Assembly: GCA_051294905.1 (NCBI GenBank)
Contig: CM119371.1
Span: forward strand, 33,792,001-33,856,000
DNA length: 64,000 nucleotides
Origin: Botryllus schlosseri
Lineage: Eukaryota
Direction: 5' to 3'
The number at the start of each line of letters is the position of its first letter. Position 1 is the first letter of the stretch. Positions 1-17,400 of the stretch are shown here, in pieces. Made by a program: the position numbers and the translations under genes. The notes beneath the pieces were generated by a model. It was not told the DNA's origin and searched no databases. It saw nothing but the letters and a program-made list of their open reading frames with translations.

Positions 1-1733
1 TACCCCAAATTTACTAATACTTCAATTCATTAAGGTAGCGTACATGGTAAATGCCGGTAATGCAAGCCTTCTCGCTACGACAAACTTACGCGTAAGCTCT
101 ACTCTCTCACGCTGCGCACACACGTATATAATAACATACTGTCACTAAAATCTGACGTTTAAGCAAGTAGTGGGGAATCTCGGCAGACTGGGGCGGCAGG
201 CTACATTATCATGTAAGGCGGAAGACTGTCCGCGAGCCGCCCAGAATCCCGTCGCGGGCTGGATCAACTGGGAGAGTATGAAAATATAAAAGCATAGTGG
301 AGGAATGTTGCTATGGTTCAGTTCACCTGGATCAATACAGCTCAAGAATGCGTTTCAATGAAAAGATAGGAAGGTGTCGAAACTTCTTGGAGTAGTCTGT
401 GAAATCGGACACTCCCCTGGGCCTAGGTCACGTTAAGAGGAGGCATGCACACTGAATGAAAAGTAAAAGAAGATAATATAAACGTATATAGAAATTTCGC
501 GTTCCATGCATGCCATGCTCTGGCTGTGAGTGACACCAAGTCATTCAACAATTGTGTGGCCTGGTTTTACTCCGCCTCCATTGTTATGACAAAAACAAAT
601 TGCACACGAAAAAAGTTTTGCTTCGAGATCCCGTTGTTATCTCAGAGGTAGTATCTTGTTCTGTGGGCTGCACATGCTCACTGCTCTCCATAGCGAACCC
701 CTGGTATGGTTAAATTGAAAGGATATGCTATTTACGCTTAGATTACTCATCGACAATTGGCGTAGGCGTATGTTTAATCATATAGATGTGTAGGTAGGTT
801 GTGTATTGCAACATATCTATTTGTCTCAACTTACTGAGGTTTCGTATTATATCGTGTAGCCTATGTGGTACAGGGTTCGGGAACGTATGTCTCGCGAGCC
901 ATATATGGTTCTTTTGCGGATATGATATGGCTCTGTGATAAGTTGTCAATTTAGCAATTTTTAATCAACATTGCTGCAACTGATTTGTAATTTTTCATAA
1001 CGGCTCGAAATATTATTCCGGTGGTAGCTGAGTCTATATACCTATCTGAGGTCAAGATAGTGGGGTATTCATTTAGGGGCTCGGACCCCCTTTTTAAATT
1101 ATAAAATATATGTCAAATTTTACCTGGCGATAACTGTTCATTTATTATTCAATATAATAGTGCTTATATTTGCCGGCAACCCATATAGCCTACCTCGCAA
1201 ATTCGCTGTACCATACATTGCACGTCTTGGGATCTTGAATTGCACGATACGTTGATTGATCAGAGAGAAAATCGACAGCATCGAGAAGCCTGTGCTTGTG
1301 TATATCAGAATTGAGTAGTACAGTTAAGCAAATGTTATCAGTTTACAATAGTCTCCATCGCTGAAATTATTATCCTCGTTTGGAGGGACTGATTAAACCG
1401 TGCGTAACTGCTGGTAGAACAATTCAGGTACGGCTATCCTCGTGCCTGACTGCCCGGTGCAGCAATTCCTTGGAAAGCTGCTTGCTTTGCAAATAGCGTG
1501 TTACAGATGATTAGGCAGTAAATTGTTAACACATTTACTGTTGTGTGCGATTGCTGGTTTTGCAGCAAAATGTACATGTTATTATAAGTATAGTTACTAA
1601 GGCGGGGCGAGATCGAGTAGGCCTACCCGCGTGATTCGATTTTGAATTTTTGAATCGAATATTAAGCTTCGAATCGAGTTGAGTATTACTCATTATGATG
1701 TTATAGCAGCATTAATGACGTGGAGAGTTCAAC

Positions 1734-2359
1734 CATAGTGTCCTATATGGTGTCGACACAGGCAAATCTCACGCCTCAGTGAAATTGATTCACGTCACAA
1801 TTTCCATTTGGCTACAGGCAATTTGACGGTCATTTTTGACCGGCTTGCCGAGCATTCAATTGGGTAAAACGGGTATCAATCGAAAGATGACACTGCATTG
1901 ATTGCGAAAATATAAATTTTATTCCGCTCGTGGCCCTGGAACTCCCACAATCAGTCTCGAATTTTTCATTGTTATGGAGATTGGCATTGGGACGTAACAA
2001 TGCTGTCTGGCTCCTTTTCTCTTGAGCTACTCTCTCGTTTCGCAAGACAGCATTGTTGCGTCCTGAGCTACTCTTTCGTTTCGCCAGACAGCATTGTTGC
2101 GTCCCAATACCAATCTCCATAACAATGAAAAGTTCGAGGCTGATTGTGGGAGTTCCAGGGCCACGAGCAGAATAAAATTCATATTTTCGTAATCAGTGCA
2201 GAGTCATCTTTCGATTGATACCCGTTTTACCAAATTGAATGCTCGGCAAGCCGGTCAAAAATGACCGTCAAATTGCCTGTAGCCAAATGGAATTTGTGAC
2301 GTGAATCAATTTCACTGAGACGTGAGATTTCCTGTGTCGACACCATATAGGACACTATG
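1734..2359. mobile_element. Foldback MITE, possibly P superfamily
   Basis: ~260-bp inverted arms beginning CATAGTGTCC; 7-bp TSD GTTCAAC (1727-1733, 2360-2366). Confidence 0.8.
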
Positions 2360-2375
2360 GTTCAACTATGTGGGC

Positions 2376-4159
2376 CAGTGGTCGGGAACCTTTTTCGTCC
2401 GAAGAGCCATATTGACCCTATATTTTCCATTTGAACTCCAAACGAGCCATACATGTCAATCAACTATTACGTCACAATTTTCAGTTTTACAGTTAATACG
2501 TCTTCTGGTGTTGCATGACATTCCTGATGACTTCGTAGTCTGGTTGATAATAGTTGAGGGCTTCATACAAAATTTGAGACTTTCCTCGGTCATACGAGAT
2601 CGTAGGTTCTTGTGCTTATCTTAAATGCGAGAACCCATGATTCGTAGGTGGAGCCAAACACGGAGCCTATACCCACTGTAATGTGTGATGTGTCAGTGAC
2701 GTGGGGTCAGGGTAGGCAGGTGACACAGTGCCTCACCTATCTACTAGATTTTGAACATCTTTACTACCAAAATTACGCAACTTGCCTATTTATTGTTCGA
2801 AAATAAAGTGTGAATGAAGACTAGAGGTAAGGTATAGGTGAGGAACGGCCGGGCGATGCCTTACCACTTACCAGTGATAGCGCAATTCATCGTAAATATC
2901 ATAACATTTATAATAACTGGTATTAATCGAATGTTATTGTCGCACTGATTCTGATTTGACTTCTCAATTCTCAAAGTATTCGCGGGTAGCATAACGTTGC
3001 GCCACATGCCTGCATTTAAACAGCGACTACAAAGCTGCGTTATCAATCAAGAACGTGGATAGTAGGGCGGTTCAAAAATAACATTTTTTCCTTGATCTTG
3101 CGGGCTACATGATTAAATCGTCAGGTTACCTTAAAAAACGACGCACACCAAATTTGAATTCATTCCAACCAATATTCGCGGTTTACGTAGAGTTTGAAAA
3201 TTTTGAATTTGCCCAGAAACGCAAAAAATTTTTTTTTTCAAATTTTCCTGCTAACCCCATGAAATTGTTGGGCTGTCTTCAAAGACTATACAAAACAAAT
3301 TTGACTCAATTCTAAGCAGTAGAAGTGGAGTTATATCAGTTTTTCTTTGATAATTCTGGGATTATCCTTGATCGGTGGATAATCCAAGAATTTTCATCGA
3401 AAAACTGGAATAACTCCACTTCTACTGCTTAGAATTGAGTCAAATTTGTTTTGCATAGTCTTTGAAGACAGCCCAACAATTTCATGGGGTTAGCAGGAAA
3501 ATTTGAAAAAAAAAATTTTTTGCGTTTCTGGGCAAATTCAAAATTTTCAAACTCTACGTAAACCGCGAATATTGGTTGGAATGAATTCAAATTTGGTGTG
3601 CGTCGTTTTTTAAGGTAACCTGACGATTTAATCATGTAGCCCGCAAGATCAAGGAAAAAATGTTATTTTTGAACCGCCCTAGTGGATAGCTATGGCGTTG
3701 TTTGTGATTTGAGTTTGTAATTGTGAATGTCACTTCCGCGGTAGTTCATTTTGCGCCGCAGATCAGGAAGACAATGTGTATTTGAAAACTGCATTGTGAT
3801 ACAGGTGCTGCTACGTATCCTACTCTCGTTGATCAATCAACGTATCGCGCAATCCAAGATTTCGTGGCGGGTACATCAAATTCGCTAGTGATATTGGTCG
3901 CCTGCGCGACGGCAACTTAAATTTGAGCATTTTGAAAAGGGGGTCCGAGGTCTTAACCCCGAAAACGCCACTGTATTAACCTCTCAAAGACATGTTTATA
4001 TTGCCACAAGGAATGATTATGCTGGTCGTGCTGAAAATTCAATAACAAGTTGCTGCAATATAGATAAATTATGCACAAAAATAAAAATTTCGCAAAGAGT
4101 CATATTTTGTCCCCAAAAGAGCCATACATGGCTCCCGAGCCATAGGTTTCCGACCACTG
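2376..4159. mobile_element. hAT (Charlie/Buster-like) deletion derivative with nested inserts
   Basis: TIR CAGTGGTCGG; TSD ATGTGGGC/ATGTAGGC; frameshifted transposase C-terminus SVFGSTY..KNLRSRMTEESLKFCMK on - at ~2561-2670. Confidence 0.8.
3063..3681. mobile_element. Palindromic hAT-type MITE
   Basis: Near-perfect ~280-bp inverted arms starting TAGGGCGGTTCAAAAA; perfect TSD GTGGATAG. Confidence 0.92.
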
Positions 4160-4443
4160 ATGTAGGCCTACCTTTTACTCTTCAACAAAGAATGCAAAGC
4201 CAGTTTTACTTCACGTAACATATAATGTGGTGTATTTTGACAATGCCTATTCCATCGCACTTTGTGACAATGCGGCGGATTGATCATGACTTCGCGGAAA
4301 TGTCATTTGCACTGTCATGCGTAGCTTTGTGCTACATGATTCGCATGCAGACACACAACAAAACGAGGTTTGATCCCTACCACGGTGGAAAAGAGTATAT
4401 TGAAACTATAACGCGCGATGATAAATTAATGCATACTGGTAAA

Positions 4444-4965
4444 TAGGGTTGCGTTTAAATCAAAAATCAATTTAGAACAAACATATTTAAAACAAGGCCC
4501 TTGTCTGTAAAAATTGTTCACAAAGTCACACTTTTTTGCCACCTACATTTTGTTTGTATTGTAAATGTTTGCACTGTCGGCAAACTTATTATTTGACATT
4601 TACCGATTGTAGCCTACTATTTAGACCTACCGTTGGAGACATCCCATTGCCTGCTCATTGTGAATCATAAACGGATAGATAAAGGATAAAGGAAATAAAT
4701 AGTTGACATGGTGTTGCGCCCAACGCACCGCAATATCCGAACTGAAGCGAGACTGCGTAGGCATTGGTTCTTATATCAGGAAGCACCATGATGAAAAATT
4801 GTGATGTAGACAACATTGTCAGAATGAAGCAACACCGCAGCAGTGTACGCAACTTCAGTGTTGCCAGCCAACAACTGCTGCTGTTGAACGTTCTTTCTCC
4901 ATTCTTGACAAGCTATTAGTAAGGACAGATACTTGCTACCCGAGAATGTAGGAAAGTATGTTTCA
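4444..4965 (+). mobile_element. Truncated DNA transposon with hAT-like transposase C-terminal relic
   Basis: Left end TAGGGTTGC.TTTAAA shared with 38568-38963; LQCCQPTTAAVERSFSILDKLL at ~4853-4918. Confidence 0.6.
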
Positions 4966-8400: not shown

Positions 8401-11400
8401 ATAAGCCTTAATCGATGGTTGTTACTACAACAACCTGGATTTGATAGCGCAACTTCAATTTTCTGGCACGGCGACAATTATCTGCAACGGCTATTTCAAC
8501 GTTTGTGTGACATTCGAGAAATAGTTTAGGATCACCAAATGCATCGTGAACCAAGGTTTAAATGAAAAGCATCGTTTAGGGCCGTGGTTCTAATCCTTTT
8601 ATTCCTGCGGCGCCCTTTTTCGAAAATTGCCTAGGTGACGCCCCCCCCCATATTTTATGGACGATAGAAAAAACAAGGGGTAAGAGTCCGGTCGCTCTTT
8701 TCCGGTTGGGACTTCACTATTGGAAACAGCTTGAATCGGAGGACCACTCGCCTATAATACAGTGGTTCTCAACCTGGGGTCCGCAAAGCATTTTCAGGGG
8801 GTTCGCGAAACCTCCAAATTTGCTAAATGGCTGATAACCTAATTTGTATGTTTTTTAATCATAGAAATCACGAGGCAGTTTCGTTTCATAATTGCTAAAA
8901 CTTCGGGACTCACATAAACAGAATTACGGTCCGAGACGCAATATCCCATTGCACGTGCAAACTAATTTAATTGCCAAATTGCCAATAGCCTACCGATATA
9001 AACACATTGCTGTTCAGAGATGTTTTGCTTGGTATGTGGAAAAGACTTGTTTGCAAAAATCTATTTTCTCCTGTGATATACTAAACCGCTATTCCCGAAT
9101 AATTTCAAAATGAGCTGCTAGATAAAAATAACTAGACTGGGCGTTATATGGCCGTTAAAAAACATGTTTCTCAATTGTGGTGCCATGTTTGTTGCGATCA
9201 TATCCCGGGGTTTCGTCGGAAGCGTCACTATCGGTACAATCGCCACCACCTATGTTTGTGGAAATGGATTTTCGGCATTCGTTCGAATTTGATCGACGGC
9301 CCGGATTTAAGACACGACCGTGCATTTCAAGAACTTTAGCTACAAAATTGACTTTGAAATAATAAAATCCTTAGCAAGTTCTACATAAATTGTATGCTGA
9401 TATTTCCAAGAAAACTCATTTTGTTGCTGTTTCTCACTACGACACAGTTAATAGTTGCAGAAGACAGATGCCTGCTGCACGAGAATAGAGCTGGATTTGA
9501 ACTAAATCTTGGGAGGATCCGTGGGGATACGTGACGGTCCAAAGGGGGCTGGCGAAGACATTAAGGTTGAGAAACACTGCTATAATAATTGTGTAGTAAT
9601 GTGACTGACGGTCCTAATATACGAGACGTGTAGTCCTCAAGCAGCCATGTATTCAGTGACGACCAAGCACCGAAGCACCTGCGATGTCGTCACACCCTAG
9701 TGGCGCCATAGAGCTACCATTACATCTCCCTTCTCAGGACAAGCACAAAAGCTTATAAGCAGCACAAACATATACAACGCACGCACAGAATGAAGACAAT
9801 AAACAATCCGAATTGAGGCAGTTAGCGGTACAAAGGTATGAAGGAATTGGCAGGCAAGGGTGATTGAAGAACACAACATATTTACACACACTACTCCTGT
9901 AACTACATCAGTACTCCTCGATGTATCTGCGAGGTGCGGTTCTGTTCCGATCCGACCGTCGGACTATCGCCGCCTCATGATGGTCATCGCGATCGACACT
10001 AGAAGCGCTCGAACTGCCATCTCCTCCCTGATCGGGAAATTTGAAGAATTCAGCTGCCTCACTGGCGGTAATGTCGACGCCTTATTGCGGGGCATTCTCC
10101 GTCTGGTATCTTCTCACCGTTCGGCGATTTCTTCTGAAGGTGCCACGCCCAGTTCTGATAACCAAGGATCTGGGTTGAGTGTCAGTGTCAAGTTTTCCAC
10201 AACACCCTGCGATTTGCAGTCCGGAATCCAGACGCGATCTCCCACCTTGAACTCATCTCCAGGTACTACTCTGTGTCTTTTGTTGTAATCACGAGTAACT
10301 CAGCGTCGGTAATCTGCTTCGGCTTTCTTCACGGCGGTTCGGTCGACAGACTTGGGCAGAAGATCGTCTGGATGACACGGAACTCTTGTTCTCAGTTTGC
10401 GGCCCATGCTCAATTCTGCCGGCGAGTAGCCTATAGCCAATGGCGTGTTGCGGTATGTGAGTAGCGCCAGATGTTCGTCGTCACATTTTCGCAGAAGGTT
10501 TTTGATGGTCTGAACGGCACGCTCAGCCTCCGAGTTACCCTGTGGATATCTAGGTGAGGACATGATATGTTCAATTTTCCAGCTTTCGCAAAATGACGCA
10601 AAGTCACGGGAAGAGAACATAGGTGCTCTATCTGTGACCAAAGTCTCGCAGATGCCGTGCCTACTGAAAATCTTCTTGAATTTCAGAACCGTTTCTGCTG
10701 CGTTCACTGTTTTGGAGACAATGCAAATCTCAATGTCCCTGGAGTAGTAGTCAACGGCTAGCAGGTACATGGAATTCTGGTATTGAAAGAAGTCGGCACC
10801 AACACGGGACCAGGGTCTCTCTGGGAAGGATGCTGACAGCATCGGTTCCACCTTTTCTCGCTGATGCTCCGTGCACTTTTCGCAATTTCTGACGGTTTCT
10901 TCAATGTCCTTAGAAATTCCAGGTCACCAGCATGACTGTGATGCATTGAGTCGGGACTTTGTCAACCCTTGGTGAGCATCATGAAGGTATTTTAGAACGT
11001 CTTGTCTCAGCGTACAGGGGATCACCAAGCGATTTCCTTTAAGCAGGAGTCCGTCATAAGCAGGCCGTGTTATTTTTGGCATATGCCAAAACTGCCAAAA
11101 ATAGCTTATTTTTGGCATTTTTCAATTTTTATTTTTGGCAGTTTTGGCATCGACCTCTAAATAGATATTTTCAGACTCGAATTAGTCATGAAAACGCTTT
11201 ATTTGGGTCAGTTTATCAAAAGAGACCAAAAAATGTTCAGCATCCACTAATAATCAGTACCAACAAACAATAATAAGAAGGAAAAACCTAGTGATTACAT
11301 AGGTTCATAATATCAAACGAAACCACAAAATGTGCAGTATCCATTCGGAATCGGTGCCAATAGGCAAAAAGAATGAGAAGCCTAACATACACGATAAACA

Positions 11401-14400
11401 CCTGATTGTTACCGCTTCTGAATAGACTCAAATTGTTTGCACTGTAACAGTGCTTCCAAACTCAGGTCAGCTAAGTTTCTCCTGAATTAATTTTTCACCC
11501 AACGAAATTTGGGGGTTCCAGATTCATGAGCAGAATACAATTTATATTCTAGTAATCAGATACAGCGGAAGCTTTCCATTGATACCCGTTTTATCAAATT
11601 TAGCGCTCGGCAAGCTGGTCAAAAATGGCCGTAAAATTGCCTTTGGACGAATGGAAAGTATGACGTAAACCAAGTGCAGTCAGCCGTTCAATCTCGCTGT
11701 GCCCACACCATTTAGGACACCATGCTTTCTCCCTAATGGGTGGGCTGGACCCATATAGTAAGATACCTGCCCTTCACACACGCTCTTCTCGCTTGTAATT
11801 CGGTCTTGTTAACACAACACCATGAACGAAACACACTATTTGGCAAGCCGTGTTATTTTTGGCATATGCCAAAAATTGGTTATTTTTGGCATTTTCAAAT
11901 TTTTATTTTTGGCAGTTTTGGCATCTGGCTCCTGAAATGCCAAAATTAACACGGCCTGGTCATAAGTAGAAAAACAGGCTCTATCATTCCAGTATGGCCT
12001 AAGTGGGCCATGCAACGTCTCTTTGCATTTCAGACACCCTGAGGATACATATTGCATCACTGTGCGCAATACGTCATCTTTCTGGAGCTCAGAGCGAATT
12101 TCATCCAACCGTTGGCAAGACGCAGGAAGGCTGGATGTGACGGCATTGACATAGGCTTCTGTCTCATTATGAAGGCCATCAACGTACTCGAAAGTTGGCA
12201 ACGGACAACGAGACAATGCGTCCGCAGTATATAGCAGTTTCCCCGGAACATGAGATATGGGGAAGTTGAACTTCATGAGGCGCATTCGGAAACGTGGCAC
12301 TCTGAGCGGAAGCTCGTCAAGAGTCTTTGTTGACAGAAGTGGAACTAATGGTTGGTGATCAGTCTCCACGCGAAGTTGATGCAAGCCGATCAGGAGTTCC
12401 TTCCATCTCTCCATAGACCCCGTTATAGCAAGGGCCTCCTTCTCGATTTGAGCGTATCGTCTCTCTGTCTCAGTCAGCGATCTGCTAGCATACGCGACAG
12501 GGCGGAGAGAGTTGCCTACCTGGCGTTGCATCAGCACAGCTCCAAGTTTTAGGCACCAGTCATTTCGATGGCATGGGTTCGAATCCCACCGCCGCCACCA
12601 TGTAGTAACGTGACTGACGGTCTGTCTAATATACGAGACGTGTAGTCCTCAAGCAGCCATATATTCAGTGACGACCAAGCACCGAAGCACCTGCGATGTC
12701 GTCACACCCTAGTGGCGCCATAGAGCTACCACTACAAATTGTATGTGCGATATTTGGAATCAAATCAAGGTTGTTATAACAACTATCGGGTACCGGCTCA
12801 TACCATTTGGCTCGAGCCCGGTGTATACACTTCCCGAATTCACCTCTCCGACTGGCAATACGGGGACGCTAATAGTATATTGGGTTTTGTTTTATTGCAT
12901 TCTATGACTAGTAAATCAACTGAGATAGTGTAAGAGATCTTTGCTCACATTGAATTCAGTACTGCACCCTGTTAATAGCATTAACATAAGTGTATTGCAA
13001 AGAAAGCAAATCGTACTATATAACGTTCATTTTATGTTGTGGTTTTGCGGGTCACAACACTAAACAGTATCACCCTTTATGATGCGATGAAGAAATATTC
13101 TGAAGATTTAATTTTGTAGCCCTCAAATACAAATATATTTAGGTACTCATTTTGACCAAAAAGGTTCAAAAGCATCTTTAATGTACCAAGGGCTCTCACT
13201 CTTAAAATAGGTACAGTGCCTCTTCCTTCGATTTCGAGACGCTGTTCGCTGCGGGATGAAATACCTAGTTCGAAATATTTTGCGCAAAAATAGCTCGAGC
13301 TGGAATTGGCGATCTAAAACTACGCGTAATTAATTTTACATGAATTATAATAAACCACTGCATACATGGAAATATGTTGCAAACATCGTCGGCATGTATT
13401 TCGCGTCGGGCGCGACGGAAAATTTCGAGATTTGACAGATTTTGTCGAACGTTAATTTGCAATTAGAACTCAGGGTTATATGGAACTGTTGTTTTACTAT
13501 ATAGTCATATGTCTCTACTGCACCCCCCATATCGCCCCCTGAGCATTTCCCCCTTCAAAATCCAAATTTTCCCTTTGGGGGAACTTGAGACCAGGTTAAG
13601 AAACACTATGGTTTAGGGCAGTGGTTTCCAACCTTTTTCGACTCATCGCCCCCTTTTCAAACTCGACACCGATGATCGCCCCCCAAATATTGGGAACCGA
13701 AAAATGGGCATACAGACTGAAATCACCGGCGAATTGACTAAGAAAAAAGGTCAACTTTTCGGCTCGACCTCGAAATTACACTTTTCCAGCTAAATTTTGG
13801 TGAGTTGACTAACAAAAAAGGTGATTTCTCCGACTTGATTCCAAAAGGACCGTAACAGCACTTCGTCAGCCCCCCTCAATACGTTGGTCTTGACCCTCTC
13901 CTCCATAGGGTGATAAAGCAAACTTCTGCACCCCTCAGACTCAACTCCCACGATACCTCTTTACCGCTACTTCTCAGCACAAATTGTTGGACTCTTTAGT
14001 TAGTGGGCCTAATTCGCGTGATGCGCGAAAAATTTCTATCATTCATGATTGAATCGGTCAATATGATCGGGAATTGCATATATATTGCTGTCAATTTTTA
14101 TCCTCTCTCTGCTCATATGTATTCAGATTAACCGGTAAAGCTGAGTGAGGTGTCTTGGAAAATGTAGGGCCCGTAAATGATAATTGAACATATTCGGGCG
14201 GACCCGTGGGTATAATGACTTCGTTACGTAATGACATTTCGTGGCCTGTCTGCTATGTCAAAAGATATTCAAATCGCCCATACGTGCTAACCTAAAAGAC
14301 GCACACGATTTTAAATTGGTATTTCTGCACTGGCAATTAATTTTTCTCTGCGAGATGGCATTTTTTTGTGGGGTTCTGATTGCCAGAACAGTAACATTTG

Positions 14401-17400
14401 GCGCCAGCCATTTAGGCGCCTATGGGCAATTAAATATATATGTATATATATCGTATATATATATCGAAGTCGGTCAGCATAAGGGCAGTCCTTTTCCGTC
14501 AAGGTTTTCTCGTTCTGGCACACTTCTCGGAGTCGCATGTTACATGGCCTGAAACTTCATATGTCTTGGTGCGTCATGGTGTGGTAATGGCTGACGCCGA
14601 GATGCCCATTTCTATAACTCATGCGTATTATTTCTTGGAGGAATGGTATCCCATAAGCAAGAAACATCTGACCACGAAATGGCGCGCAGCGCGAAAATTT
14701 TTTGAAAAAGTTGCCCAAATTTCCAAAATAATACTCTATAATTAATGTTAATTCACTAAAAAATAGTGGCCCCCCTACGAGCTCTGGCCGCCTATCCCAA
14801 TTGGGGGTTTGGGTGTGGCAGTTACTGTCATGGACGCCAATATAGCCATTTCAACGCGCCATCGCCCCCTTCGTCCATTTTCGCCCCCCTATCGCCTCCT
14901 TGGCTATTTTCGCCCCCCTGGACCGACAAATCGCCCCCTGGGGGGCGATATCGCGCACGTTCGGAACCACTGGTTTAGGGTTAAATCACTATCCCTTTAC
15001 GTTGTCGTATAATGTTACTGGACTCAGCTACATCTGCGGTAGTGAAGTACTGTTTCTGTATACTGCCGCGGTGACGAGAGTTACTACGAATCCTACTGCA
15101 GATCTCGGATAACTTTCACCAGAAAGCGTGTAATTTGATTATTATGAAGGCTACTTGATTAACGCTATTGCAATCGTCAATGTTTTGCCAATGTACACTG
15201 TAGCCGCAACCCGCAGATCGCGCCACAGGATGGATTGAAATATCTGGCTGCTTAATCCCTGTCGGCACAGAGAAAAAGACTCGCTTTGTTGGTGCGTGTT
15301 TTCTAATGAAAATGAAATACAATAAGCATTGGCAAATACGTCCTAAGCTAGTCAAATACAAAGCATCTTACTTGACAAAGAATCTTCCGGGTTTTTTGGT
15401 TTAATATATTTCTAGATTTACTTTGACTGTAACAAGATACCAAAACAGTGAGATGAATGAATTAACCTAAACTAGCCCTATTCTAGTAATGCAATACACC
15501 TAACTATTCCTATTCTATTACCTCAACTAATGCCAACACGATCGTACAACTAACGCATGTTCACTAAACAGTGAATTGCATCACGATCTAGTTACCGCTG
15601 TGAGGTAACAATGACACTGAGTCCACTTCTTTGCTCGGCGGGAGTGTGAAGGAGCCACAGCGACACCTTAGGGCCGTACGGCGGCTACATACACTGTGTA
15701 CTGTGATAATGTGGTTATAGTTTACGGGACTGGTATGGCAAAGTTGCATACAGCAGGTTAAAAATGTAGAATGTCTTCCGCTCCTCCCAGTTTTAGCCCA
15801 ACTGTCAGTTCAAAATACGGTGTATCATATGCAACTATGACACGTCATTGTTATGTAGGGATACGATATGCCCTCTTTTAAGAGGATCTGTCCTCTTTTT
15901 TCAATAATACAAAATGGCCCTCCGAGGACGCCCAAATATCCTCTTTTTTCGGCGGCCGTCCTCTCTTTTTGTTTTGAGTGTTAGGCGACTATATTCCTGC
16001 AGAGGCTATACAGAGAAAGAAAAAAAATATCCTCCAAATTAGTTTCCTAAAACAATAGAAAAGGGCAACCCAACGGAAACTGTCCGGATATAAGTTCCCT
16101 ATGCGGTAATTTAACTTTTATAAAAGTCAACTTACCGGACGATCAATGTATATCTCTTATTGTTACTTGAAAAAAAGTGTCCCTCTTTCCAGACCTCAAA
16201 ATGTTGTAACCCTATTGTTAAGGGATATCGAGGATATCTGCAAGAAGCACGCTTCCGAGGAGCCCGAGGAGGAAGAAGGTTTAGTGCACATGAGCGCTAA
16301 AGAATTCGATGATTTACGTGAAGCACATCGAGGGGACGCTTCGACGCGTCCTGACCTTGACTTGAGGAAAGTCCGCGTTAATCTTGCGAATACCAGCGGG
16401 CTGACTGCGGAGCAGTATTTGAAGTGTAAAGCGGAGGAATTTATCGAGAAACACGCGAATCCCTGGCCGAAAAGTCGCGTGAAGCCGACTCTGACTCCGT
16501 TCAAGGTAATCTCTCCTATGCTGTTGTTTATCACGGGTAAAGTTCGTAAAATTGGTCATCATTGCTACTCAAGTAGGCGTACCTATGCTGTAGTTTGTTA
16601 CTAGCATAGGTGTTCAAAGTAATCTGTGTTGGTATCCTCGTAAGGAGAAGTAACGACGTTATTAAGAGTCGGAAGTAGGGTAGGCGTCTTCGAAATTTCC
16701 GGAGTCGGAGTCTTAGCTCAGCCTTAGTCTGAAAGCGGTGCGCATACTCACTGATCGGTGGTATACTAGGGTTACCATATTTTGGAAATCTGAAAAGAGG
16801 ACACTTTTTCAGAATTTTCAGACTTGCAAAACCGGAGGAAAATCCTACAAAAATGGTAAATTATTCTCACTTCGTAGTCGGTTGGCTAAAAAAGGGTCAA
16901 ATCTCTCGCTCAGTGCCCAAAATACAGTTTTTTCTTCACATTATCAGGTGGTTGACTAAAAAAATACAAGACGCCGAAGCGTTACTTCGGAGCTGATTTA
17001 TGGCATCTGAGTCGAATTTGGCCGTAAATTGGACCAAAATTCTCAAAAAGGAGGACAACATCTCAAACAAGAGGACATTTGGGCGTCCTCCGAGGACACT
17101 CTAAAAAAAGTCAAAAAGTTGACAAATCCCCTTAAAAGAGGACGCATGGTAACTATGGCTGGGCAAAATCGAGTACCCGAGTGATTCGATTCTGAATCAC
17201 GTATAACGCTTCGAGTCGAGTCGAGTAATCGAGTATCGCTCGTTATGGCGTCACAACAGAATGTACTATGTCAAAGTTCAAATATGTACCTTTTATACTA
17301 CCACAAGGAACATAATGCCTGTTATCCGTCACAGTAAAGATACTTTGGTATTTTTTGACCATACCGATTTGATTGCACTTCTTGACAATGTTGTGAGGTG

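Follow-up and report, generated by a model that had tools for sequence, protein, structure and literature searches.

A dead-on-arrival Ty3/gypsy-type retrotransposon of Botryllus schlosseri and the probable copying of its primer tRNA-Leu beyond the primer-binding site

The element and the tRNA complement beside its 5' LTR

The window analysed here is a stretch of 64,000 nucleotides of the Botryllus schlosseri genome (assembly GCA_051294905.1, contig CM119371.1, positions 33,792,001 to 33,856,000 of the forward strand). Its minus strand carries a defective, 3.1-kb copy of a Ty3/gypsy-type long terminal repeat (LTR) retrotransposon, in which the complement of the 3' two-thirds of a tRNA-Leu stands between the 5' LTR and a remnant of pol. 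Both LTRs, the polypurine tract (PPT) and a perfect 5-bp target site duplication (TSD) are intact, and the coordinates below confirm what the initial annotation had stated about them. In the order of the element, the features are:

12741-12737, minus strand: upstream copy of the TSD, CAATT (5 bp), identical to 9591-9587
12736-12601, minus strand: 5' LTR, 136 bp, TG...CA, direct repeat with 9724-9592
12600-12546, minus strand: complement of tRNA-Leu(UAG)+CCA, 55 nt, with 53/55 identity to the host gene plus CCA
12547-12546, minus strand: microhomology AC (2 nt), present both in the tRNA complement and in the pol target, with the junction inside or next to it
12545-11959, minus strand: pol remnant (truncated RNase H-like domain and linker to the integrase), equal to reference positions 2582-3169
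11061-11958, strand unassigned: later hAT-like non-autonomous DNA transposon, 898 bp, outside the original event
11060-10300, minus strand: integrase region (zinc-binding and core domains) with in-frame stops, from Pfam and reading frames
10299-9736, minus strand: 3' part of the pol frame and untranslated stretch before the PPT; homologous 3' ends of other copies reach reference position 4500
9735-9725, minus strand: PPT GAGAAGGGAGA, directly before the 3' LTR
9724-9592, minus strand: 3' LTR, 133 bp, TG...CA, direct repeat with the 5' LTR
9591-9587, minus strand: downstream copy of the TSD, CAATT

The frame that starts at 12545 reads LGAVLMQ and matches the Pfam domain RT_RNaseH from position 17 of the 105 of the profile (17-105, E 2.6e-22), so the tRNA match does join directly to RNase H codons, as had been proposed. 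Downstream of this domain follow Integrase_H2C2 (E 2.5e-4, below Pfam's cut-off) and rve (E 3.9e-11), and no Pfam match to a reverse transcriptase (RT) domain was obtained in the window copy. A natural full-length copy of 4635 bp serves here as the reference and coordinate ruler. The pol remnant is 96.1% identical to it over 588 bp, and the window copy lacks reference positions 149-2581 and resumes at 2582. The missing part comprises the leader, RT and the coding sequence that precedes RT, which is unannotated and whose place is that of gag and protease. This agrees with the earlier statement that all four are absent, with gag and protease inferred by position. The hAT-like insertion, the stop codons in the integrase and the AC microhomology are additions to the initial annotation.

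The TG...CA LTRs with their TSD, the tRNA-complementary primer-binding site (PBS) after the 5' LTR and the PPT before the 3' LTR are those of a Ty3/gypsy element. The order RT, RNase H and integrase is found in the full-length relative, and the window copy keeps only the truncated RNase H and the integrase; gag and protease upstream of RT have been deleted from it. The same PPT, GAGAAGGGAGA, also precedes the LTR in loci L005, L074 and L083. The two LTRs of the window copy differ by 3 substitutions and one 3-bp indel (about 2% divergence), and this divergence, the stop codons and the hAT-like insertion make it one old, decayed example. We regard it as a dead-on-arrival defective derivative of a tRNA-Leu-primed Ty3/gypsy-type element that arose by overshoot into the primer and an aberrant strand transfer, with a probability of roughly 0.87 for this explanation as a whole.

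The tRNA segment starts with TGG directly after the last base of the 5' LTR and is the complement of a class-II tRNA, whose sense strand is the plus strand. It spans tRNA positions 76 to about 30. Included are the CCA, the discriminator, the 3' strand of the acceptor, the T arm with A58, a variable arm of 13 nt, the 3' strand of the anticodon stem, its loop with G37 and the anticodon, and two bases of that stem's 5' strand. The match from CCA through the T arm and the long variable arm into the anticodon loop, as first annotated, is upheld by 53 identities in 55 positions with host tRNA-Leu(UAG)+CCA; the mismatches are at copied nucleotides 8 and 28.

The genome searches covered the assembly from which the window comes (495 Mb, 219 contigs). 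A query of the 62-nt tRNA-sense stretch matched both element copies and tRNA genes, and ARAGORN called 23 tRNA-Leu genes in 17 of the 25 loci submitted (13 AAG, 9 TAG and 1 TAA). AAG and TAG genes are near-identical apart from the anticodon. None of these 23 called genes encodes the CCA, as had been expected, and alignment to the host tRNA-Leu(TAG) genes extends the match far beyond 18 nt, CCA included. The genes of the AAG and TAG types are interleaved in a cluster on contig C4 (13.52-13.63 Mb), and the variant acceptor pair of one AAG gene (L041:1173-1255) corresponds to a PBS variant found in many copies of the element.

A tRNA gene or pseudogene and a tRNA-derived SINE were considered for this segment and rejected, since it contains only positions ~30-76 and the CCA, lies antisense to the element and is matched by no caller. 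In the window, ARAGORN called no tRNA gene, and Rfam at E values up to 1 gave no tRNA match and two weak chance matches; there is no call at the segment because the 5' third of the tRNA is absent. The initial annotation had also pointed to a Pol III B box, and to anti-tRNA-fragment RNA that could result. The B box is present on the plus strand, but the half of the tRNA with the A box is missing; Pol III transcription and such an RNA are conjectural.

Relatives of the window copy show the usual state of the family. The search of the assembly with the LTR and junction yielded 41 matches from the best 40 of 388 candidates, and the bases after the LTR were read in 30 loci. In nine of them (L022-L030) the tRNA complement is only 8-14 nt long; the same leader continues in eight, and in L022 the leader is cut by a rearrangement. 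In four of the five regions fetched around normal copies, two LTRs stand 4.3-4.6 kb from each other, are flanked by 5-bp TSDs and enclose a single long frame. The natural full-length copy contains RVT_1, RT_RNaseH, Integrase_H2C2 and rve in gypsy order, and the 540 residues upstream of its RT have no Pfam match at E 0.001.

Because the normal relatives have a PBS of 8-14 nt followed by the leader, the long tRNA match is not ancestral to the family. The PBS length in relatives, proposed earlier as a test, thus supports read-through. In the window copy the tRNA complement is contiguous with U5, begins with the complement of CCA and continues past the PBS of the family (55 against 8-14 nt), as an overshoot of DNA synthesis into the primer would leave it.

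Separate junctions in the window's family and in other LTR families

The assembly contains 37 exact matches to a 16-mer that bridges the LTR end and the PBS start, and the reversed control contains none. These 37 matches, classed by their coordinates against loci already read, comprise 21 extended copies, with tRNA copies of 16-59 nt, and 16 normal ones (13 from the sequence or the extent of the match, and three inferred from a pol match about 2.44 kb downstream). Each extended copy has its own tRNA length and its own junction. Thirteen sense junctions, after tRNA copies of 16-58 nt, lie at 13 different positions of the ruler (1395-4255) and run on towards the 3' LTR. They present microhomologies of 0-5 nt, with a mean of 1.85 nt against 0.68 nt in random pairings (P = 0.0003, 20,000 resamplings). 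Perfect 5-bp TSDs flank six of the seven copies with both LTRs in view, the exception being L019. In L008-L011 and L013 the LTR and a tRNA copy of 40-45 nt are followed by non-element DNA, with no TSD within 1.5 kb; strong-stop DNA captured at a break, or a later rearrangement, could be the origin of these five.

The junction of the window copy is spanned by its own locus only. All 30 candidates were scored, and the other 29 match the pol side only; such pol-only matches of other copies begin at position 28-29 of the junction query. A mobile non-autonomous family with this junction, of the LARD or TRIM type, had been suggested in case of multiple copies, and this idea was discarded because the junction is single-copy (1 of 30).

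Two tandem arrangements were observed among the deleted copies, L004/L005 on contig C9 and L074/L083 on contig C5. In both, the 3' LTR of a deleted copy is followed by the same tRNA copy and junction, which suggests LTR-mediated unequal exchange or the integration of a concatemer.

The same architecture was looked for outside the family with a 31-nt pattern, TGG and 28 nt of tRNA complement with up to two mismatches, which gave 119 matches in the assembly and none in the control. Among the 100 matches listed, tallied by eye, 39 are CCA-bearing copies of the AAG/UAG type, 52 belong to a third variant and nine are tRNA genes. In the flanks that were read, at least four further LTR-like ends (...ACA, ...GCA) abut TGG, with a length and a junction peculiar to each locus. 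A generic motif, CA-TGG-N12-G-NN-TYGAACC, gave 73 matches against 10 in the reversed control. Those checked and above chance are of tRNA-Leu types, except the repeat at L096-L099, which was considered as an overshoot and set aside as a chance match for its constant flanks and the lack of a tRNA-like T arm. The generic motif also led to eight loci, each with a junction of its own, of a family whose primer is a tRNA-Leu(CAA)-like species. The tRNA-Leu(CAA)-like genes have an intron next to the anticodon; they were identified by eye, as pieces lacking the 5' end, and none was called by ARAGORN. A cluster of CAA-type genes, with introns of about 30-40 nt adjoining the anticodon, is found on contig C4 at 19.77-19.79 Mb.

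Altogether, 48 distinct junctions were read in at least six LTR families, all of them tRNA-Leu-primed. The family of the window contributes 22 junctions, a second family 12 (one with a variant LTR end), three others 2, 2 and 1, and the CAA-type family eight; one junction has an unclassified upstream sequence.

Several loci record variants of the same accident. In L076, L077 and L090, a tRNA copy of 35-48 nt is followed by a jump back into U5, so that the tRNA piece stands upstream of an LTR end; a normal PBS and leader follow this partial LTR end in L076 and L077, and another sequence follows in L090. The elements at L076 and L077 may be otherwise full-length, with a tRNA insert in the leader region. 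The copy at L006 continues antisense and then sense. In L085 (contig C12, 10613700-10614220) there is a palindrome composed of an LTR, a 46-nt tRNA complement, a turn, the tRNA in sense and an inverted LTR, as would be expected from snap-back self-priming of overshot strong-stop DNA. In L080 the tRNA copy closes with three units of the 7-nt motif AATGACT from the variable arm, a stutter where synthesis stalled, and in L016 and L037 the tRNA copy is joined to the last bases of the LTR.

The events also differ in where they end along the tRNA. Among 12 events of the AAG/UAG type that reach position 34, six have U34 (UAG type), six have G and none has A. The assembly contains 21 AAG and 10 TAG anticodon arms, and no GAG arm was found within one mismatch of the 21-nt arm across the assembly (0 in the control). 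The best reading of G34 is therefore inosine 34 of tRNA-Leu(IAG), for which the RT put a G. None of 38 AAG/UAG-type events passes beyond G26, and four of them end at positions 27-26; five have their last copied base at position 38, next to G37, and 18 stop in the variable arm or the 3' strand of the anticodon stem. Of nine CAA-type events, three stop directly ahead of G37, and G37 is not crossed by any of the nine. All but one of the 48 events reach A58, and no stop at A58 is seen in the 47 events with more than 18 nt copied.

The non-encoded CCA, the G34 and the end points indicate a mature, modified tRNA as the template. The window copy is of the UAG type, and therefore only the CCA argument applies to it. 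In the tRNA molecules that were copied, A58 and G37 would have been unmodified or bypassed, and G26, which is m2,2G in other eukaryotes, would act as an absolute stop. In excerpts of one study of tRNA sequencing (PMC8062790), cDNA shows a G where the tRNA has I34; the level of I34 is close to 100%, that of m2,2G26 is almost always full and that of m1G37 lies between 14 and 80%, while m1A58 differs among tRNAs and AMV RT is blocked by m1G. The patterns of end points and of G34 run parallel to such data, and by analogy the same modifications would be present in Botryllus schlosseri.

The third variant of the 31-nt pattern, GCGATGGG, is abundant (52 of the 100 matches listed) and was considered as a mobile LTR family with a tRNA-extended PBS. 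It was rejected as such, because the repeat has terminal inverted repeats (TIRs) and no LTRs. The repeat is about 1.8 kb long, with TIRs of 17-33 nt that start with CAGTGG (CAGTGGTCGGGAACC) and an 8-bp TSD, and it is present at full length at dozens of sites (L086:633-2453 on contig C2, and also L066-L073 and L079). It is a hAT-like DNA transposon, and with its TIRs, its 8-bp TSD and its lack of LTRs it is no evidence for retro-mobility. Within it lies a diverged 56-nt complement of tRNA-Leu(I34)+CCA, in which position 34 is read as G. This complement has the appearance of an old overshoot product that the DNA transposon took up and multiplied by cut-and-paste.

The hAT-like insertion at 11061-11958 of the window has TIRs that begin with CAGGCCGTG and an 8-bp TSD, CTTATGAC, at 11959-11966 and 11053-11060. 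It contains palindromic subterminal units of about 120 bp rich in GCCAAAAATA (repeat family D4) and sits in the zinc-finger region of the integrase, where the alignment to the reference breaks and then resumes with an overlap. A second hAT-like element of about 1.35 kb, at 13619-14972, has the ends CAGTGGTTTCC.../...GGAACCACTG and an 8-bp TSD, GTTTAGGG, at 13611-18 and 14973-80. Near 9565-9580, just past the 3' TSD of the LTR element, there is an end, CAGTGTTTCTCAACC, that resembles that of the element at 13619-14972.

Proposed mechanism and alternative explanations

The core of the interpretation put forward initially was that RT ran past positions 58 and 37 of the primer, that an aberrant transfer into pol followed and that the product was integrated. 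The long host match, the relatives with a short PBS, the TSD and the excess of microhomology all favour it. A plus strand with the tRNA complement contiguous with U5, TGG first, can arise only if plus-strand strong-stop DNA copied the covalently attached primer. As the PBS of the family is only about 13 nt long, any additional nucleotides copied leave the 3' end without a partner. The element already had its deletion when it was integrated, because both LTRs share one perfect TSD, and the presence of TSDs indicates the integrase of the element. The junctions as a set show that stranded 3' ends are rescued by pairing of a few bases elsewhere and by extension, and the jumps back into U5, together with the stutter, the snap-back and antisense copying, speak for a template-switching polymerase.

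We propose the following course of events for the window copy. Plus-strand strong-stop DNA would have been primed at the PPT, copied U3, R and U5, and entered the primer tRNA still attached to the minus strand. Instead of stopping after the approximately 13 nt that match the PBS, synthesis would have copied 53-55 nt of mature tRNA-Leu(UAG), through A58 and G37, until it reached the 5' strand of the anticodon stem. A 3' end of this kind would find no partner in the PBS copy of the minus strand. It may then have annealed through the AC microhomology in the RNase H coding region and been extended, with about 2.4 kb skipped. The acceptor would be either a site within the minus strand or, if that strand was still incomplete, its tip. 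An internal acceptor on a complete minus strand would give a heteroduplex that is resolved later, and a growing tip would give a clean duplex at once. The integrase would next have inserted a molecule composed of the LTR, the 55-nt tRNA copy, the RNase H and integrase regions, the PPT and the LTR, making the 5-bp TSD. The divergence of the LTRs, the stop codons and the hAT-like insertion would represent later decay. We infer the order of the strand-transfer events, and likewise the enzyme that made the join.

Several observations weigh against this account or limit its reach. The five loci without a TSD beyond the tRNA copy (L008-L011, L013) and the TSD-less L019 are unexplained by the simple model. 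The 16-mer count omits copies with mismatches, such as L003 and L018, and the proportion of 21 extended copies in 37 is a survivor count in one assembly, not a rate. The families beyond that of the window are assigned by their LTR-like end only, and copies with both LTRs in view come from the family of the window. With regard to the read-through itself, a hypomodified primer and an RT that bypasses m1A58 and m1G37 would both fit.

A further difficulty is that the microhomologies of 0-5 nt fit host repair as well. The overshoot would then have occurred as described, and the join to pol would have been made by microhomology-mediated end joining of broken or incomplete cDNA at a double-strand break. 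The loci in which a tRNA tail meets non-element DNA without a TSD (L008-L011, L013) do resemble capture at a break. On the other hand, the clean 5-bp TSDs in six of seven two-LTR copies imply that both ends were substrates of the integrase, and the U5 back-jumps of L076, L077 and L090, the antisense-then-sense copy of L006, the snap-back of L085 and the stutter of L080 typify a template-switching polymerase. We therefore consider host end joining unlikely, though it is the strongest of the alternatives. The long complement might instead be an ancestral, functional extended PBS of a non-autonomous subfamily, with the deletion made later or by design, and a repeat of more than 50 copies does bear a similar 56-nt complement of tRNA-Leu. 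This repeat, however, has TIRs, an 8-bp TSD and no LTRs and spreads as a hAT-like DNA transposon, whereas one candidate in 30 has the junction of the window, the complement in normal relatives is 8-14 nt long and every extended copy differs in length and junction; such an origin is the least probable of those weighed here.

Some retroelements are known to target tRNA genes, and an insertion beside a tRNA-Leu gene or a retro-copied tRNA, or recombination with one, together with a deletion, could also bring the two sequences together on the chromosome. A chimaera of the assembly would have the same appearance, and the junction is known from the assembly alone, a point in favour of this explanation and against the overshoot. 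Of the sequencing runs listed, none holds more than 0.38 of the words sampled, and marine or seawater metagenomes hold small shares, from which we conclude nothing. Yet no base separates the CCA from the end of the LTR, the tRNA segment runs antisense without its 5' third, and one TSD is common to both LTRs. In addition, dozens of loci on many contigs have the same architecture, with a G34 that no gene encodes. A chromosomal or artefactual origin is thus very improbable, and the overshoot with aberrant transfer is the reading that we retain.

Comparison with known systems and implications

The step concerned is the termination of plus-strand strong-stop DNA, and it is the same one as in HIV-1 with tRNA-Lys3. 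According to excerpts of PMC13191261 and PMC8599865, plus-strand DNA copies the 3' end of the attached primer tRNA and so provides the PBS for the second strand transfer, and the stop in HIV-1 is m1A58. In the same excerpts, synthesis continues without m1A58, with later stops at 55, 54 and 37, and the overshoot product is non-complementary after the transfer and 'cannot be integrated'. Compared with HIV-1, the copy in the window is 55 nt instead of 18, the PBS of the family is about 13 nt and A58 is no stop. Read-through of position 58 and a stop at 37 are shared with what these excerpts describe for TRMT6-mutant cells and for unmodified primers in vitro, where ends fall at 55, 54, 37 and the tRNA 5' end; unlike those overshoot products, the ones in Botryllus were rescued by aberrant transfer, integrated with TSDs and fixed in the genome. 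The signatures of mim-tRNAseq, as far as excerpts of PMC8062790 give them, are alike in that I34 is read as G and stops occur at m1G37 and m2,2G26. Here, in contrast, the signatures were written by the retrotransposon's own RT and are kept in chromosomal DNA.

As in LARD and TRIM elements, the LTRs, the PBS and the PPT are kept in the window copy and the coding capacity is lost. Those elements amplify in trans as families, whereas the junction of the window is single-copy and each related copy is a separate accident. Dead-on-arrival LINEs truncated at the 5' end are likewise defective from a failure of reverse transcription and are inserted as such, at a frequency that reports the enzyme and not selection. 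They belong to another element class, and the failure here was one of plus-strand transfer, not of incomplete target-primed reverse transcription.

An early precedent is also to be considered. Olsen and Swanstrom (J Virol, 1985) are said to have described a few unintegrated avian retroviral DNAs with short extra tRNA nucleotides beside U5 and a deletion, and reportedly attributed them to strong-stop DNA that runs into the primer and pairs at partial homology. The copies described in the present work differ from those DNAs in being integrated germline copies, in reaching up to 59 nt and in belonging to many families.

The biochemical step and its dependence on tRNA modification are already known. 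In the full-text literature searched, whose coverage leaves out most subscription journals and supplements, there was no earlier account of integrated germline overshoot products at this frequency, in several families and with footprints of inosine and of G37 and G26. How primer-tRNA modification terminates plus-strand strong-stop DNA is known chiefly from HIV-1 and from work in vitro, and in the excerpts mentioned overshoot is a dead end. Natural integrated overshoot products are abundant, varied and readable base by base, and they show which tRNA positions stop a retrotransposon RT in vivo. They thereby connect, directly and in a way that can be tested, how a species modifies its tRNAs with how sound its retrotransposon copies are. 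The rescue of a stranded 3' end by microhomology, in turn, leads to deleted, inverted, palindromic or tRNA-bearing copies. An LTR end followed by TGG and more than 18 nt of tRNA complement is a signature that can be searched for in any genome.

It is conceivable, at somewhat less than even odds, that overshoot is the main route to defective copies in several gypsy-type families and that its products preserve, as a fossil record in DNA, how the primer was modified. If so, this record would show inosine 34 as essentially complete, G26 as an absolute barrier, G37 as a partial one and A58 as none. Either the tRNA-Leu of this lineage would lack an effective m1A58 stop, or its RTs would bypass m1A58. 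The modification of the tRNA would then set the error rate, and hence the burden, of a whole group of retrotransposons.

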